IMG/VR virus record: IMGVR_UViG_2711768055_000004
Length of the DNA stretch: 13,160 nt
Source: a virus
Lineage: Duplodnaviria; Heunggongvirae; Uroviricota; Caudoviricetes
Direction: 5' to 3' (one strand)
Shown here: positions 2,795-12,668 of the stretch, in pieces
Layout of the letters: every line of letters begins with the position of its first letter
How positions within the stretch are numbered: the first letter of the stretch is position 1
The notes under the pieces: generated by a model
What the model was told of the DNA's origin: nothing
Database searches by the model: none
What the model saw: only the letters and a program-made list of their open reading frames with translations
Translations under genes and position numbers: made by a program

Positions 2795-5387
2795 TTGCAT
2801 ATTCCTTAGCCCAGCGGGGCAGTGATAATGTCTTAATAGCTGGCCATTCATCGGTATTCAGGCAGTCAGACAGGGTTCGCAGATTGCGGTGATATTCCTG
2901 TTGACCTGCCAGTTTTGCTTCTTCGCCCATCATGAAAATTTCAACCGGATAACGTCCGCATTCAATAGTTGTGCTGGCAACCAGAAAAACGAAAGTTGGC
3001 TGCACTCCAAACTGTGCTTCATAACCGTCACTGTAGAATGCATCCTGAACGTGATAGCGGTAGTCGTAATAAGCGGTTTTGAATCGTTGAATATCCGCCG
3101 TAGTTTTCACGTCCATGATCCAGTGAAATTCAGGGATAATTTTGTCCGGACGGCACCGACACAAAATTCCTGTTTCAGGATCTTCCCAGTAAATTGATGA
3201 TTCAGCGTGTCCGGCGCTTTCAACAAGCCATTGCCCCAGCGGCAAAGCCATAACGCTTTGATACATGAGTTCAATTTTCCGGCCTTCTTCCGCAGTGATA
3301 ACCGTTTTTCCTGTGCTTGCGCATTCCATCAGAAACGCTTTCTCTTCTTCTTTTCCGGCGTTTGTACGGCGGTTAAATTCAGGTGCTACGATAAAGCGGT
3401 TACTGAATTCTTCCGGTTCAAGTACCCGGCAGTGGAAAGCAGTTCCTAAATCGAGCGTTTTTGTCTTTGTGGTGTCCACGGGGGCATTTTTACGCCACAA
3501 ATATAGTGCCGGAGTATCAGCAATGTCATCGAGCTGAGACTTACTGATACCGGGACCCGCGTGGTAATTCTCATTCGAAATTCCGTAATAAATACCTGGC
3601 TCTATGTCTTCTACGATTACGGGATCTGCGACTTCGCCAGTTTCATCACTGCAATCGCGATGCGGATCGCTGCCAGCATTCTCATTGTGCGGATGTTCAG
3701 CGCCTTCCATTTCCTCCGGATCATTTTCCTTAGCTTCAACCTGACTCTCTTCATCGAATGTTTCCTGGTATGTTGCGTCGCCCATCACCGCACCACAGTC
3801 AGGGCAGTTATCCCCGCCAGTCTGGCCGCAGGCATTGCAGGCTATTTCCGGTTCCTGTTGCACTACTGGCTCAGGTTGATTCATATCTGGGCTGGTTTTT
3901 TCCGTTTCTGGCTGGTTCTGGTACACACAATCGCGAGTCTGGATCCCCTTTACCCATTTCGGATCGTTCGGGTCGCTAATTCCGTCAACAAATTCACCAC
4001 GTGATGCAGCAAGCAATTTATCGTCATCGACAGGATTTTTTGATGGAATGTTTTTCCGGGCTTCATGGAGTTCTGCCCGCAGTTCCTGATATTTCGCATC
4101 AACAGAATTTACCTGTGACTGAGCATCCAGCGGCTGCGTGTCCTGATGATGTTCAGTTGCGTCCGGTTCCATTGTTTCAGCCTCTCCCTGTTCAACTGCC
4201 GTTGTTCCAGATGGTTGCGGTTTTTCTTCATCATCCTGTTTTCCTTCTTCTGTTACTCGCTGCGGCATCGGGGCAGAGGAGCGACCGCAGGCAATATCCA
4301 CGATTTCCGGATCAGGGTTGGCATGATCGGTTTCAGTCAGTACTTTGTTCAGATATTCAGTGACGTGCGCGGGGATGACCTCGATCCCAATTGGTGCTTC
4401 TTTTACGGACGCAACCACGATGGCGCGGGAATAATCCAGCCCGCCAGGCATGGTGATGAATTTGTCGCGGAAAACAGAAAAGGGCGGTTTATTTTCAGCG
4501 ATAATTTCCTCAATGCGTTTAGCGTGTGCCGGATGAAGGTTATAGATGTCCAGATCCATTGAACGGGCCAGTACGCCAGTGGCTACGTCGCGCGCCAGTG
4601 ACGTCAGATCGTGTACGAAACCTTCGCCGCGATCGGTGAGGTTTCCGCCGCCAGCATTAGCACCGGAAGCCGTGCGAGTGATGTGTGAAACACGATTACC
4701 CTTCATCCACTCTTTTGTCAGCAGTCCTCGATCGGTGTAGTCAGCGTTCAGGTATGCTTCGAAAAAAGCAGTTATCAGTCCCAGGTTTGAATTACCAGGA
4801 TTAGGGAAAACTTTGTCAGTGTCACGAACCAGTTTGTGGAGTTCGCGAATTTCCAGCGGGTCGAGCAGGCTGGTTTTGTGGGAAACAGCCAGGGCAGTAA
4901 CAGCCGGTAGTTCTTCAGCCCGAGCAATGTGTAATGCCTGGAGTCCGTCGCGTGAAACGTGCGTTACCGGTTTTTCGCTGCCGTGTTGAGCAAGCCAACG
5001 AATGGGCAGTTCCTGGCCAGAAATTGGGAGTAGCATATTCTCCTCAATCTCAGTCATGTCTTCGCCGTTGACGTTGGTATTGCCTTGATAGTGAGCGTTG
5101 TCTGGTGCTGCTCCCGGTTTTAGTTCCCATGTCATGGAGTCTTTGCTGAGTTGATAGCGTTCACTCCAGGTAAAATCGATCTCACCTTCAGCGGGCAGGT
5201 CATTAACGACAGGAAAATTCGTGGCAACAGCTTTAAAATAGCTGCTCAGTTTTTTACCTGACTTAACGATCAGGTAGTCCAGAGTGGCACAGGTCGATTC
5301 AAAATCGTTGCTTGCCCACAGGACGACGTCAGGTTCACCGGATGATTTTTTCGCTTTCCGTAACAGGAAGAGTGGTTTTGTGCTCAT
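2787..5387 (-). CDS. recE: RecE exonuclease VIII (5'-3' dsDNA exonuclease), 866 aa
   Basis: 866-aa ORF from the track; N-terminus [24 protein letters not shown] and acidic central linker, with the C-terminal nuclease domain, match recalled K-12 RecE. Confidence 0.95.
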
Positions 5388-6671: not shown

Positions 6672-7160
6672 ATGTTGGATGTATTTACTCCATTGTTGAA
6701 ACTTTTTGCTAACGAGCCACTCGAAAGACTTATGTATACGATTATCATTTTTGGTCTCACTCTCTGGCTGATACCGAAAGAGTTTACTGTCGCATTCAAT
6801 GCTTATACTGAAATACCTTGGCTCTTTCAGATTATCGTTTTTGCCTTTTCTTTCGTGGTCGCCATTTCCTTCTCAAGATTGCGAGCACATATTCAAAAGC
6901 ATTATTCATTACTACCAGAGCAACGAGTATTGCTTCGTTTATCTGAGAAAGAAATCGCTGTATTTAAAGATTTCCTTAAAACAGGAAATCTTATTATCAC
7001 TTCTCCTTGCCGTAACCCGGTTATGAAAAAATTAGAACGGAAGGGCATCATTCAACATCAGAGTGATAGCGCAAACTGTTCTTATTATCTCGTCACCGAA
7101 AAATACTCCCATTTTATGAAGTTATTCTGGAACAGCAGGAGTAGACGTTTTAATCGTTAG
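6672..7160 (+). CDS. sieB: SieB superinfection-exclusion membrane protein, 162 aa
   Basis: Track ORF 6549..7160; start placed at ATG 6672 (MLDVFTPLLKLFANEPLERLMYTIIIFGLTLWLIPK...) with GAGAG upstream; the hydrophobic N-terminal half fits a membrane protein. Confidence 0.85.
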   Translation: MLDVFTPLLKLFANEPLERLMYTIIIFGLTLWLIPKEFTVAFNAYTEIPWLFQIIVFAFSFVVAISFSRLRAHIQKHYSLLPEQRVLLRLSEKEIAVFKDFLKTGNLIITSPCRNPVMKKLERKGIIQHQSDSANCSYYLVTEKYSHFMKLFWNSRSRRFNR

Positions 7161-7312
7161 CTTACTGTGTGCTTCTCCAACCATCGGCGCGCACCAGTTT
7201 CGGTTTTAAATGTTTTGCTTTTGGTATACGTCATGGCAGTGAACGTTCCATCCTGGTTGGGGAACACGCCGCACACCAGGGATTCGTTGTTGCCGAGGTC
7301 GATTTTTTGCAT
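7157..7312 (-). CDS. ydaF: YdaF, 51-aa small protein
   Basis: Not in the ORF track. Hand translation gives MQKIDLGNNESLVCGVFPNQDGTFTAMTYTKSKTFKTETGARRWLEKHTVS. Its stop (7157..7159) overlaps the convergent sieB stop (7158..7160). The ribosome-binding site is weak. Confidence 0.65.
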   Translation of the reverse strand: MQKIDLGNNESLVCGVFPNQDGTFTAMTYTKSKTFKTETGARRWLEKHTVS

Positions 7313-7322
7313 TTTGCGAATC

Positions 7323-7457
7323 TCACATCTTGTTGCTACGTATAGCGACTTCTGCCTGCCAGAGATCCCAGTCGTTGCTGCGTAAAGCCTGCACAGCCTG
7401 GTTGTAAGTGATACCGCAACAATCCATCAAATACTGAACTACTTCGTAATGCACCAT
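7323..7457 (-). CDS. ydaG: YdaG, 44-aa small protein
   Basis: Not in the ORF track. Hand translation, checked codon by codon, gives MVHYEVVQYLMDCCGITYNQAVQALRSNDWDLWQAEVAIRSNKM. A strong AAGGGGAGAG ribosome-binding site precedes the ATG at 7455..7457. Confidence 0.7.
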   Translation of the reverse strand: MVHYEVVQYLMDCCGITYNQAVQALRSNDWDLWQAEVAIRSNKM

Positions 7458-7619
7458 CTTATCTCTCCCCTTAACGCCGGGTGGCGGAACTAACTGCTGC
7501 ACTGCAAAATTTGAATCCCGCCGTCATGTTCATACGCCTCGGGCTGGCTACTTAACCCCTTACCACTGCCTGGTAACTCGAAGTATTGCCCGGCGTTCTG
7601 TGGGGCGGGGTGGGTGGTA

Positions 7620-7700
7620 TGCTGGAACTATAGGTAATGCCTAATTGATTGTCAATAGGCTATGCCTAATGTTTTGAGCGTAACCTAATAGGTGATGGCG
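7620..7700 (-). promoter_or_regulatory. OL-like operator/promoter upstream of ydaG (leftward)
   Basis: Read on the minus strand: ATTAGGCA (7670..7663), TTGACA (7655..7650), ATTAGGCA (7645..7638), TATAGT (7632..7627), with a 17-nt spacer. This closely mirrors the OR-like module. Confidence 0.5.
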
Positions 7701-7725
7701 ACAGCAGAAAGTGATGGGGGGGTTA

Positions 7726-7751
7726 AATAACGGAATCCAGGAGTTTTCCGT
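7726..7751 (-). terminator. Weak hairpin plus U-rich tail just downstream of the racR stop
   Basis: ACGGAA, 10-nt loop, TTCCGT (7730..7751), followed on the minus strand by UAUUUAA and then a C-run. The stem is short and the call is tentative. Confidence 0.25.
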
Positions 7752-7765
7752 CAGACCATATAAGT

Positions 7766-8242
7766 TTAAGTTCCAGTTTTTGTGATGTTCTGGCTTTTCC
7801 GTTCAGATTCAAGAGCTTTCAGATACTTACCCACTTTCATTTCCATCGCTGCTATGTAGGCGCGAACATCGTGGTCAACCCAATCTGGTTCTGTAGCATT
7901 TCCAGATAACAGGAAAGCTACAATCGCTCTTATTTCATCAGAGGCTGCTTGATAAAGGTTGTTTATATCTAAAAGTTCACTTTTTGTATCTGAATTGGTG
8001 GGGGTTGGTATGGGGTATTCGTTAAGCCCCCAATGCTCTGGACCAACAACATCAGAAAAGAAACGCCATAATTCTGGAAGTTTATCTTTACTTATAGAGC
8101 CTTTCTTAATCCAGTCATAAATTGATGGTGGTTGGACTTTAAAGTGGCGTGCGACCTCCGCCTTTGATTTGACGGATCCCGATGCGATTTTTTTGTTAAT
8201 GGCCTGCTCTATCGCTCGGCCTAAGTCTTTACCACTAAGCAT
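7766..8242 (-). CDS. racR: RacR, prophage repressor (HTH), 158 aa
   Basis: Track ORF; AGGAG 11 nt upstream of the ATG; helix-turn-helix-like segment KAEVARHFKVQPPSIYDWIKKG. Divergent from ydaS across an operator-rich intergenic region. Confidence 0.9.
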   Translation of the reverse strand: MLSGKDLGRAIEQAINKKIASGSVKSKAEVARHFKVQPPSIYDWIKKGSISKDKLPELWRFFSDVVGPEHWGLNEYPIPTPTNSDTKSELLDINNLYQAASDEIRAIVAFLLSGNATEPDWVDHDVRAYIAAMEMKVGKYLKALESERKSQNITKTGT

Positions 8243-8261
8243 TGCTTAATATTCTCCTATG

Positions 8262-8345
8262 CGCATTACATTAGGCAATCCCTACCCTTACTGCATTAGG
8301 CACAGCCTATTGACAATTGCGTTAGGCGTCGCCTAATATTTCTGT
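8262..8345 (+). promoter_or_regulatory. OR-like operator/promoter region between racR and ydaS
   Basis: ATTAGGCA at 8270..8277 and 8295..8302; -35 TTGACA at 8310..8315; 15-bp palindrome TTAGGCG-t-CGCCTAA at 8322..8336 overlapping a -10 TAATAT at 8334..8339; GGAG then ydaS ATG at 8366. Confidence 0.6.
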
Positions 8346-8365: not shown

Positions 8366-8662
8366 ATGAAAAAAGAGAACTATTCATTCAAGCAAGCTTG
8401 TGCTGTTGTCGGTGGGCAATCAGCAATGGCTAGGCTTTTAGGTGTATCACCTCCAAGCGTAAATCAATGGATCAAAGGGGTACGTCAATTGCCTGCCGAG
8501 AGATGTCCAGCAATTGAACGTGCAACAAGAGGTGAGGTTCTGTGCGAAGAACTTCGTCCTGATATTGACTGGTCATATTTACGACGTTCGGCATGTTGTT
8601 CGCAGAATATGTCAGTGAAGCAACTAAATGACAGTAACAAATCCTCATTTGATCATACCTGA
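8366..8662 (+). CDS. ydaS: YdaS, Cro-like HTH protein, 98 aa
   Basis: Track ORF; GGAG upstream of ATG 8366; HTH-like segment QSAMARLLGVSPPSVNQWIKG. It is the first gene of the rightward operon opposite racR. Confidence 0.9.
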   Translation: MKKENYSFKQACAVVGGQSAMARLLGVSPPSVNQWIKGVRQLPAERCPAIERATRGEVLCEELRPDIDWSYLRRSACCSQNMSVKQLNDSNKSSFDHT

Positions 8663-8684
8663 AACATCAAGAGGCAAATGATTC

Positions 8685-9107
8685 ATGAAAATCAAGCATG
8701 AGCACATCGAATCAGTGTTGTTTGCCCTAGCAGCCGAAAAAGGGCAGGCATGGGTAGCCAATGCAATTACTGAAGAATATCTGCGCCAGGGGGGCGGCGA
8801 ATTGCCCCTGGTTCCAGGCAAGGACTGGAACAATCAGCAGAATATCTATCACCGTTGGTTGAAAGGTGAAACGAAAACGCAAAGAGAAAAAATTCAGAAG
8901 CTGATCCCAGCAATTCTGGCAATCCTTCCGCGCGAGCTGCGTCACCGACTCTGCATCTTCGATACCCTGGAACGCCGTGCATTACTGGCGGCGCAGGAAG
9001 CGTTAAGTACGGCAATTGATGCGCATGATGATGCAGTCCAAGCCGTTTACCGGAAAGCGCATTTCAGCGGCGGCGGTTCTTCCGACGATTCTGTCATTGT
9101 TCATTAA
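8685..9107 (+). CDS. ydaT: YdaT, 140 aa (reported toxic, cII-position protein)
   Basis: Track ORF immediately downstream of ydaS; MKIKHEHIESVLFALAAEKGQAW... matches recalled K-12 YdaT. Confidence 0.88.
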   Translation: MKIKHEHIESVLFALAAEKGQAWVANAITEEYLRQGGGELPLVPGKDWNNQQNIYHRWLKGETKTQREKIQKLIPAILAILPRELRHRLCIFDTLERRALLAAQEALSTAIDAHDDAVQAVYRKAHFSGGGSSDDSVIVH

Positions 9108-12257: not shown

Positions 12258-12668
12258 TTAGCGTGGAAAGATTTGTGTAGTGTTCTGAATGCTCTCAGTA
12301 AATAGTAATGAATTATCAAAGGTATAGTAATATCTTTTATGTTCGTGGATATTTGTAATCCATCGGAAAACTCCTGCTTTAGCAAGATTTTCCCTGTATT
12401 GCTGAAATGTGATTTCTCTTGATTTCAACCTATCATAGGACGTTTCTATAAGATGCGTATTTCTTGAGAATTTAACATTTACAACCTTTTTAAGTCCTTT
12501 TATTAACACGGTGTTATCGTTTTCTAACACAATGTGAATATTATCTGTGGCTAGATAGTAAATATAATGTGAGACATTGTGACGTTTTAGTTCAGAATAA
12601 AACAATTCACAGTTTAAATCTTTTCGCACTTGATCGAATATTTCTTTAAAAATGGCAACCTGAGCCAT
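12258..12668 (-). CDS. ybcV: YbcV/YdfO-family (DUF1398) prophage protein, ~136 aa
   Basis: Track ORF 12258..12791 begins at a TTG; I place the start at the ATG at about 12668 ([18 protein letters not shown]...) with GGAAGG upstream. An alternative ATG at about 12710 would give 150 aa. Resembles DLP12 YbcV. Confidence 0.75.

Follow-up and report, generated by a model that had tools for sequence, protein, structure and literature searches.

The DNA analysed here, hereafter the window, is a stretch of 13,160 nucleotides (virus record IMGVR_UViG_2711768055_000004) which is the Rac prophage carried by Escherichia coli K-12; its 1.4-kb core is 100% identical to the K-12 strains ER1709, MT102, and JM109, and adding 1,411,999 to a window position gives the MG1655 coordinate. 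Rac is the source of RecET recombineering and of the classical sbcA suppressors. It is among the most used prophages in E. coli genetics and also supplied KilR and the ydaST 'toxins'. On the minus strand the genes are intR, xisR, rcbA, ralR, recT, recE, racC, ydaE, and kilR, beyond which lie sieB (plus strand), then ydaF, ydaG, and racR (minus), and then ydaS and ydaT (plus). The leftward operon begins with ydaG and ydaF (7157..7457) and continues through kilR, ydaE, racC, recE, recT, ralR, rcbA, and xisR to intR (1-1236). The repressor gene racR lies between two short cassettes of operator repeats and promoter hexamers, one on the right reading on the plus strand (8295-8339, ATTAGGCAcagcctaTTGACAattgcgTTAGGCGTCGCCTAATAT) and one on the left reading on the minus strand (7670-7627, ATTAGGCAtagcctaTTGACAatcaATTAGGCAttaccTATAGT). 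The left cassette, a candidate leftward operator and promoter (OL and PL), is the subject of this report; its parts and neighbors are listed in Table 1.

Table 1. Features at and around the two cassettes that flank racR (window positions)
Feature	Position	Strand	Remarks
ydaF	7157-7312	-	among first genes of leftward operon
ydaG	7323-7457	-	among first genes of leftward operon
PL leader	7458..7620	-	about 163 nt, to the ydaG ATG
Predicted PL	7627..7655	-	-35 TTGACA 7655-7650, 17-bp spacer, -10 TATAGT 7632-7627
OL1, promoter-proximal left operator	7631..7643		TAGGTAATGCCTA; 1 mismatch to TAGGC-N3-GCCTA
OL2, distal left operator	7656..7668		TAGGCTATGCCTA; perfect
Conserved block upstream of OL2	7683..7698		CCATCACCTATTAGGT (minus-strand reading)
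racR	7766..8242	-	repressor gene between both cassettes
Right operator over racR start codon	8236..8248		TAAGCATTGCTTA; 2 mismatches; published, overlaps C.Csp231I off-target site
Right operator	8272..8284		TAGGCAATCCCTA; 1 mismatch
Right operator	8297..8309		TAGGCACAGCCTA; perfect; adjoins -35 of PydaST
PydaST, equivalent of the rightward promoter PR	8310..8339	+	TTGACA-18-TAATAT; mapped experimentally (PMC9638921, PMC11879457)
O1	8322..8336		TTAGGCGTCGCCTAA; perfect 15-bp palindrome over spacer and start of -10 of PydaST
ydaS	8366..8662	+	Cro analogue, first gene of rightward operon

Both cassettes are built from one repeated unit, the 13-bp inverted repeat TAGGC-N3-GCCTA, which is often extended to TTAGGC-N3-GCCTAA (13-15 bp). 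Searching the 13,160 bp for TAGGC-N3-GCCTA with no more than one mismatch gave five matches, at 7631-7643, 7656-7668, 8272-8284, 8297-8309, and 8323-8335; 0.15 were expected, none of 200 shuffled sequences reached five, and all of the matches were inside the two cassettes. Allowing two mismatches added a single match, at 8236-8248 on the racR start codon, and a scan of a 16.4-kb stretch of Rac for the operator revealed no further site. The operators are spaced, centre to centre, 25 bp apart on the left and 26, 25, and 36 bp apart on the right. A promoter scan found TTGACA-17-TATAGT on the minus strand (7655-7627; 11 of 12 consensus positions) and TTGACA-18-TAATAT on the plus strand (8310-8339; 10 of 12). 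Two copies of the composite of operator, TTGAC, and operator are present in the window, whereas 300 shuffles gave 0.0; chance origin of the cassettes was thus ruled out. The layout is common to both: a distal operator adjoins TTGACA and is followed, after 4-7 bp, by a proximal operator that merges into the -10 hexamer, so that, counted from the predicted start sites, the operators lie at about -48 to -36 (on the left, OL2) and about -23 to -11 (OL1, whose end forms the start of the -10).

An earlier, sequence-only reading of this DNA had described the same layout in opposite orientation in the two stretches, and both strings were found where it had placed them. It was also right in placing one unit next to the -35 hexamer and another in the spacer; these are, however, full 13-15 bp inverted repeats and not the half-sites it took them for. 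Similarly, the extra upstream unit that it saw on the right is present, but as a full imperfect operator, TAGGCAATCCCTA, and there is a fourth right site at the racR ATG. The perfect 15-bp palindrome noted on the right is there as well but is not special to that side, as both left sites are palindromic (0 and 1 mismatch). The plus-strand hairpins at 7656-7668 and 8321-8337, considered as intrinsic terminators, were rejected; they are the operator palindromes themselves, and the window contains two terminator-like structures against 2.0 by chance.

For the right cassette, footprints and a published description already exist. A 2017 study described three GCCTAA/TTAGGC repeats and reported that RacR binds the racR-ydaS intergenic region (PMC5700373), DNase footprints of RacR defined an ATTAGGC monomer motif and the consensus (T/A)TAGGC-n3-GCCTA(T/A) (PMC9638921), and operators O1-O3, later 'four inverted repeats', were described along with the mapping of PydaST (PMC9638921, PMC11014345, PMC11879457). 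That RacR represses ydaS-ydaT, as the earlier reading stated, is likewise in print. When the left sites are compared with the footprinted consensus, OL2, read as ATAGGCTATGCCTAA, is a full match, and OL1, read as ATAGGTAATGCCTAA, has one core mismatch, equal to the published weaker right-hand sites. The operator sequence and the operator/-35/operator/-10 design of the right side (O1-O3/O4 and PydaST; PMC5700373, PMC9638921, PMC11014345, PMC11879457) recur on the left, and the distance between the two promoter operators, 26 bp on the right versus 25 bp on the left, is the only layout difference. The right side, which includes the racR promoters as well, has been studied by footprinting and with reporters, whereas the left side is predicted from sequence and has no divergent promoter. 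As expected of a lambdoid immunity region, operator clusters with outward near-consensus promoters stand on either side of racR (7627-7668, minus strand; 8297-8339, plus strand), and the tandem operators on both sides are of one sequence family (TAGGC-N3-GCCTA variants). We conclude that 7627-7668 is very probably a RacR-controlled leftward promoter and operator of the lambda OL/PL type, with PL predicted from the spacing and from a homology junction described below to start at the A at 7620 (MG1655 1,419,619, minus strand).

The sequence-only reading had set conservation in related Rac-like prophages beforehand as one of the tests on which the idea should stand or fall, and the cassettes proved decisively conserved. 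Relatives' loci were selected by RacR protein similarity alone. In an O157:H7 prophage with 86.6% nucleotide identity both left operators were kept, and the changes affected the N3 spacer and the arm that is imperfect to begin with. More distant loci were those of Mixta, Proteus, and Morganella (62%, 60%, and 57% amino acid identity, respectively) and, with similarity confined to the N-terminal domain, those of Achromobacter and Pigmentiphaga. A right-hand operator cluster lay over the repressor start in each of them, the 8236-8248 operator being conserved in distant relatives as TAAGCATNGCCTA, and each had, downstream of the repressor gene and in the same direction, an operator pair exactly 25 bp apart, flanking TTGAC(A/T) and ending in TAATAT, TATAGT, or TACTAT amid unrelated surrounding sequence. 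The half-site has not drifted because RacR residues 39-73, in the N-terminal DNA-binding domain, are almost invariant in the distant homologues. The one exception was a truncated homologue from Klebsiella sp. R390, with no left pair inside the 2.5-kb flank. In Klebsiella phage KpF5, a complete phage genome deposit from hospital wastewater, the left pair is at 5374 and 5399 and a DUF450 gene intervenes between repressor and PL, with the cassette laid out as in Rac.

Viral contigs were also scanned without regard to the repressor, using the pattern TAGGCNNNGCCTATTGAC; at least 120 contigs matched and 80 were examined. A divergent pair of complete cassettes was present in 65 of the 80, mostly 601-630 bp apart with a second class at 0.9-2.6 kb, and since the pattern itself required the distal operator and TTGAC, the independent observations in this set are the proximal operator, the -10, and the partner cassette. 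A RacR-like protein (41-100% identity) was encoded in 65/80, and several of the contigs without a pair had a lone module near the contig end. Across 46 unique PL-type cassettes, information content peaked at the four half-sites, the -35, and the T of the -10, and was at background in the spacers and flanks; the proximal operator stood at the 25-bp spacing in all 46 of these modules and in every protein-selected relative with a left pair. The -35 and -10 hexamers matched consensus at 10-12 of 12 positions across genera, amid scrambled flanks. The two-cassette design was thus found from Enterobacterales to Burkholderiales.

A different kind of comparison came from prophages that carry other immunity regions. 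Thousands of E. coli genomes match window 7466-7620 only, and the PL leader is kept at 85-100% identity in thousands of E. coli prophages with different immunity regions, Rac- and Qin-like ones among them. The sequence past the 7620 match was inspected in two genomes. Strain E89 has the same ydaG, ydaF, sieB, and kilR arm with a different helix-turn-helix repressor and cro, and strain TUM14697 has a Qin-like ydfA-dicB arm with a LexA-family CI repressor. In both, homology to Rac covers the leader and breaks off at the predicted +1, 7620, give or take a few bases. Past this junction E89 has GTACTTTGTGTTCA-type repeats and TUM14697 has GGTAAC-N4-GTTACC-type repeats, and in each strain the same repeats recur between its own repressor and cro genes; compared with RacR-type loci, the operators on both sides therefore change together with the repressor. 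It follows from the junction and from each strain's own repeats that the 7627-7668 slot is the left edge of an exchangeable immunity cassette. To judge from these sequences, the operators in the slot follow the repressor type, and the immunity-module junction is at the predicted PL start site. Homology between the Rac leader and that of K-12 Qin dicBp was considered and rejected, as the two could not be aligned; it is the Qin-like prophages of other strains that share the leader.

Published expression data show how the left arm behaves when RacR is lost. Shut-off of racR by C.Csp231I raises kilR more than 70-fold and ydaF, ydaG, ydaE, and racC about 40-fold, with racR the only Rac gene to fall (PMC6765115). 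The xisR and intR genes rise about 100-fold only once RacR is below its native level, and the authors remarked that these genes are far from racR (PMC11014345). Cascade roadblocks at racR +3 and +58 lowered racR RNA 20-fold and 11-fold, respectively, and induced ydaG, kilR, ydaE, racC, recET, ralR, xisR, and intR (bioRxiv 10.64898/2026.09.06.749655). Loss of RacR thus derepresses both early operons, an effect which could be partly indirect. As the left arm goes up while racR transcription is blocked, its transcription must start downstream of the roadblock, and the fall of racR RNA as the left arm rises argues against simple read-through from the racR promoters. Together with the motif match and the exchange of operators in heteroimmune relatives, this derepression supports the proposal of the sequence-only reading that ydaG and ydaF, and perhaps kilR-recET, are under RacR control.

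We propose that RacR dimers on OL1 or OL2 would exclude sigma-70 RNA polymerase from PL, as they do on the two promoter-proximal right operators at PydaST, and that with RacR present both outward promoters would be shut. When RacR falls, PL would fire from about 7620 leftwards, through ydaG-ydaF into kilR, recET, ralR, xisR, and intR, and from one such event killing, proficiency in recombination, and excision of the prophage could all follow. The left operators are probably shared by the Cro analogue YdaS, by analogy with PaaR2 and YdaS in CP-933P. RacR is reported to be octameric from gel filtration only, and the authors, who do not use the word 'loop', read it as four dimers on four intergenic sites. 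Because RacR is octameric and the operator clusters are 580-690 bp apart, a lambda-like loop in which one octamer would bridge the leftward and rightward operators (OL and OR) is plausible. A more ambitious proposal joins three parts: that PL/OL is the single cis-element for RacR control of the whole 7.6-kb left arm including xisR-intR, that the octamer loops OL1-OL2 to the right operators (about 0.6-0.7 kb), and that sbcA alleles activating recE map to OL/PL or racR. This joint proposal we offer tentatively, and would put its chances at somewhat below even. If it is true, excision, KilR killing, and RecET activation would be direct read-outs of PL and not mediated by YdaS or YdaT; the loop would differ from the published four dimers on four intergenic sites, and deletion of OL would weaken ydaST repression and alter racR autoregulation.

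Several points weigh against a RacR-controlled PL/OL at 7627-7668. Since YdaS, YdaT, and excision are switched on simultaneously, part of the left-arm induction could be an indirect effect. RacR has two clear operators on the left, versus three in lambda, CP-933P, and Qin, and in the viral-contig set the distal operator and TTGAC of each cassette came with the search pattern. EcoCyc, RegulonDB, and the pre-2000 sbcA and kil papers were outside the reach of our literature search, which found no operator described downstream of racR. We infer that RacR, and probably YdaS too, occupies OL1 and OL2 and that one transcript reaches intR; the exact PL start site is likewise a prediction. Finally, silencing of kil has been ascribed to a Rho-dependent terminator (trac) inside racR that acts on read-through from the racR promoter, with no PL invoked (PMC4150792).

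Three other explanations were considered. Derepression of the left arm might be indirect, the sites being bound mainly by YdaS or the promoter being activated by YdaS, YdaT, or excision; YdaS and YdaT do rise more than 100-fold in the same experiments, YdaS overproduction promotes excision, and PaaR2 and YdaS share operators in CP-933P (PMC8630535). The left sites, however, match the footprinted RacR motif as well as the right ones do, the left cassette has no YdaT box, a consensus promoter needs no activator, and Cro-type proteins normally share the operators of the repressor rather than replace it. We therefore regard an indirect effect as highly unlikely, although it is the most credible of the three. 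Next comes the idea that the left sites are auxiliary operators only, anchoring an octamer loop that tightens PydaST repression and autoregulates racR, with the hexamers incidental and inactive. The octameric state of RacR, the looping by which lambda OL assists OR (as summarised in PMC8630535), and published Rac work that explains everything by the intergenic sites alone would all suit it. Maintenance of the hexamers across genera amid scrambled flanks, and the response of left-arm genes to RacR depletion despite the block to racR transcription upstream, would not; such a loop is, in any case, compatible with a working PL and not exclusive of it, and an auxiliary role alone seems to us very improbable.

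Least probable of all, and given hardly any weight here, is the view that leftward expression is read-through from the racR promoters, which the Rho-dependent terminator would normally halt, and that the left promoter is an inert relic of a defective prophage. It is favored by the trac model, by the lethality of rho mutants, which depends on kil (PMC4150792), and by the lack of a predicted intrinsic terminator in the stretch from racR to the left cassette. Against this, racR RNA goes down 11- to 100-fold exactly as ydaG to intR rise 40- to 100-fold, and the cassette is intact in K-12 with a layout identical to that of phage KpF5. The trac terminator and PL are not mutually exclusive and can coexist, for example if Rho acts on basal PL transcripts with their C-rich 5' end. 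A RacR-repressed PL thus remains, in our judgment, the best account of the left cassette.

Rac shares with lambda a repressor gene placed between two outward early promoters, tandem operators that overlap each promoter at a spacing of about 2.3-2.5 helical turns, a left operon with kil, recombination, and xis-int functions, a repressor that forms octamers, and operators that lie within an exchangeable immunity cassette. Rac differs from lambda in the size of its operators (13-15 bp, with 5-6 bp arms and a 3-bp spacer, versus 17 bp), in their number (two clear left and four right sites versus three and three), and in the OL-OR distance (about 0.6-0.7 kb versus 2.3 kb). In addition, the C-terminal domain of RacR is unrelated to that of CI, RacR is among the short repressors judged unlikely to self-cleave, and no N or nut system was recognised in Rac. 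A counterpart is PL933P with OL1-OL3 of CP-933P (PMC8630535), a cryptic lambdoid prophage whose right operon carries ydaS-ydaT, which has a second promoter placed past the repressor operon, and whose repressor, PaaR2, is octameric like RacR. The -35 and -10 of PL933P are identical to those of its PR, its operators match, and its reporter fusions are repressed by PaaR2 and by YdaS (PMC8630535). CP-933P differs in having another repressor and operator, with GTTTAGTAA-type repeats, a toxin-antitoxin pair between repressor and PL, and three left operators. In Qin, dicBp under DicA/DicC (PMC10448788) occupies the same slot, in which the promoter that follows the repressor gene drives ydfA, a DUF1391 gene related to ydaF, as well as a cell-division inhibitor; the repressor is again short and non-cleavable, and Qin-like prophages share the Rac PL leader. 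The DicA operators are, however, unrelated in sequence, and the short leader of K-12 Qin does not align with that of Rac. By analogy, the Rac left cassette is the direct counterpart of PL933P/OL1-3 and dicBp, sister systems whose left promoters have been tested.

The sequence-only reading knew of no description of a second, leftward operator upstream of ydaG, and in the searchable literature we found none. The main RacR papers (PMC9638921, PMC11014345, PMC11879457, PMC5700373) never tie ydaG, ydaF, kilR, or sieB to an operator; what the 2025 paper calls 'OL/OM/OR' are YdaT sites within the intergenic region and not a left operator. An in vitro run-off transcription paper (PMC3141248) is silent on ydaG and PL, and a query for sbcA with racR returned no papers. 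As far as this literature shows, the left cassette looks like an undescribed member of a well-known kind. A PL at this place is what a phage geneticist would expect; it still fills a stated gap in current Rac work, as the papers in which RacR was lowered report xisR, intR, kilR, and recET up 40- to 100-fold, 'far away from RacR', and name no cis-element, which PL/OL would supply. It would also offer point mutations for testing and a compact, tightly repressed consensus promoter cassette, and would alter the reading of the RacR octamer and of the role of YdaS in excision.

The first 30 or so nucleotides of the PL leader are C-rich and G-poor, which we infer to be the kind of sequence that Rho loads on. 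An Rfam scan detected no known RNA family in the leader; its fold gave a z-score of -1.76, with a compensatory change in only 1 of 40 predicted pairs among nine variants. The absence of a predicted terminator between racR and OL may be why Rac relies on Rho against racR read-through. A GC hairpin and T-run terminator directly upstream of the distal left operator was seen elsewhere, at loci L141 (about 5310-5370), L021, L027, L061, L067, L096, and L099, which are Klebsiella-phage-type relatives and several viral contigs with a RacR match in the N-terminal domain only. The conserved block upstream of OL2 (Table 1) is kept in Escherichia-type prophages while adjoining bases vary, and contains two half-sites in everted orientation. 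In some strains it reads TAGGTTACGCTTA, a two-mismatch operator 20 bp from OL2; the block may serve as a third, weak left operator or have another role.

A box for the CII-like YdaT, ATGATT-n6-AATCAA, was rejected for the left cassette, where the only match (7645-7662) had three mismatches and was at chance level. Good matches were the known box at 8678-8695 and the stretches 1504-1521 and 12419-12436; sites with one mismatch or none lie at three places in the window and amount to 5 strand-hits against 0.46 expected. The repeat at 1504-1521, TTGATTATTAATAATCAG, has one mismatch to ATGATT-n6-AATCAA / TTGATT-n6-AATCAA and lies 51-68 bp upstream of the xisR start (1453, minus strand); by analogy it may be the counterpart of the CII-activated PI promoter of lambda, acting on xis-int.

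Some of the other loci were unusual in their repressors. Those of Achromobacter and Pigmentiphaga (L012, 2501-3598, 365 amino acids; L013, 2501-3406, 301 amino acids) have a RacR-type N-terminal domain about 75% identical over 77 amino acids, joined to much longer, unrelated C-terminal regions, yet have the same operators; it looks as though domain shuffling had moved a fixed DNA-recognition module between proteins. Eight viral contigs (L022, L030, L043, L052, L060, L073, L081, and L092) have operator/TTGACA/operator cassettes with TAGGCAATGCCTA-type cores, and in them tblastn detected no RacR-like open reading frame or only a 41% partial match; more distant repressor families may use the same half-site and cassette design. 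A 5.2-kb contig assigned to a 'Candidatus Nanosynbacter' metagenome-assembled genome (L006, JARKOR010000130.1) encodes a RacR 100% identical to that of K-12 and has all six Rac operators; it is almost certainly E. coli DNA placed in the wrong bin. In the left arm of the window itself, the RalA antitoxin small RNA, a known Rac feature, was matched at 1557-1735 on the plus strand (Rfam RF02694, 225 bits).

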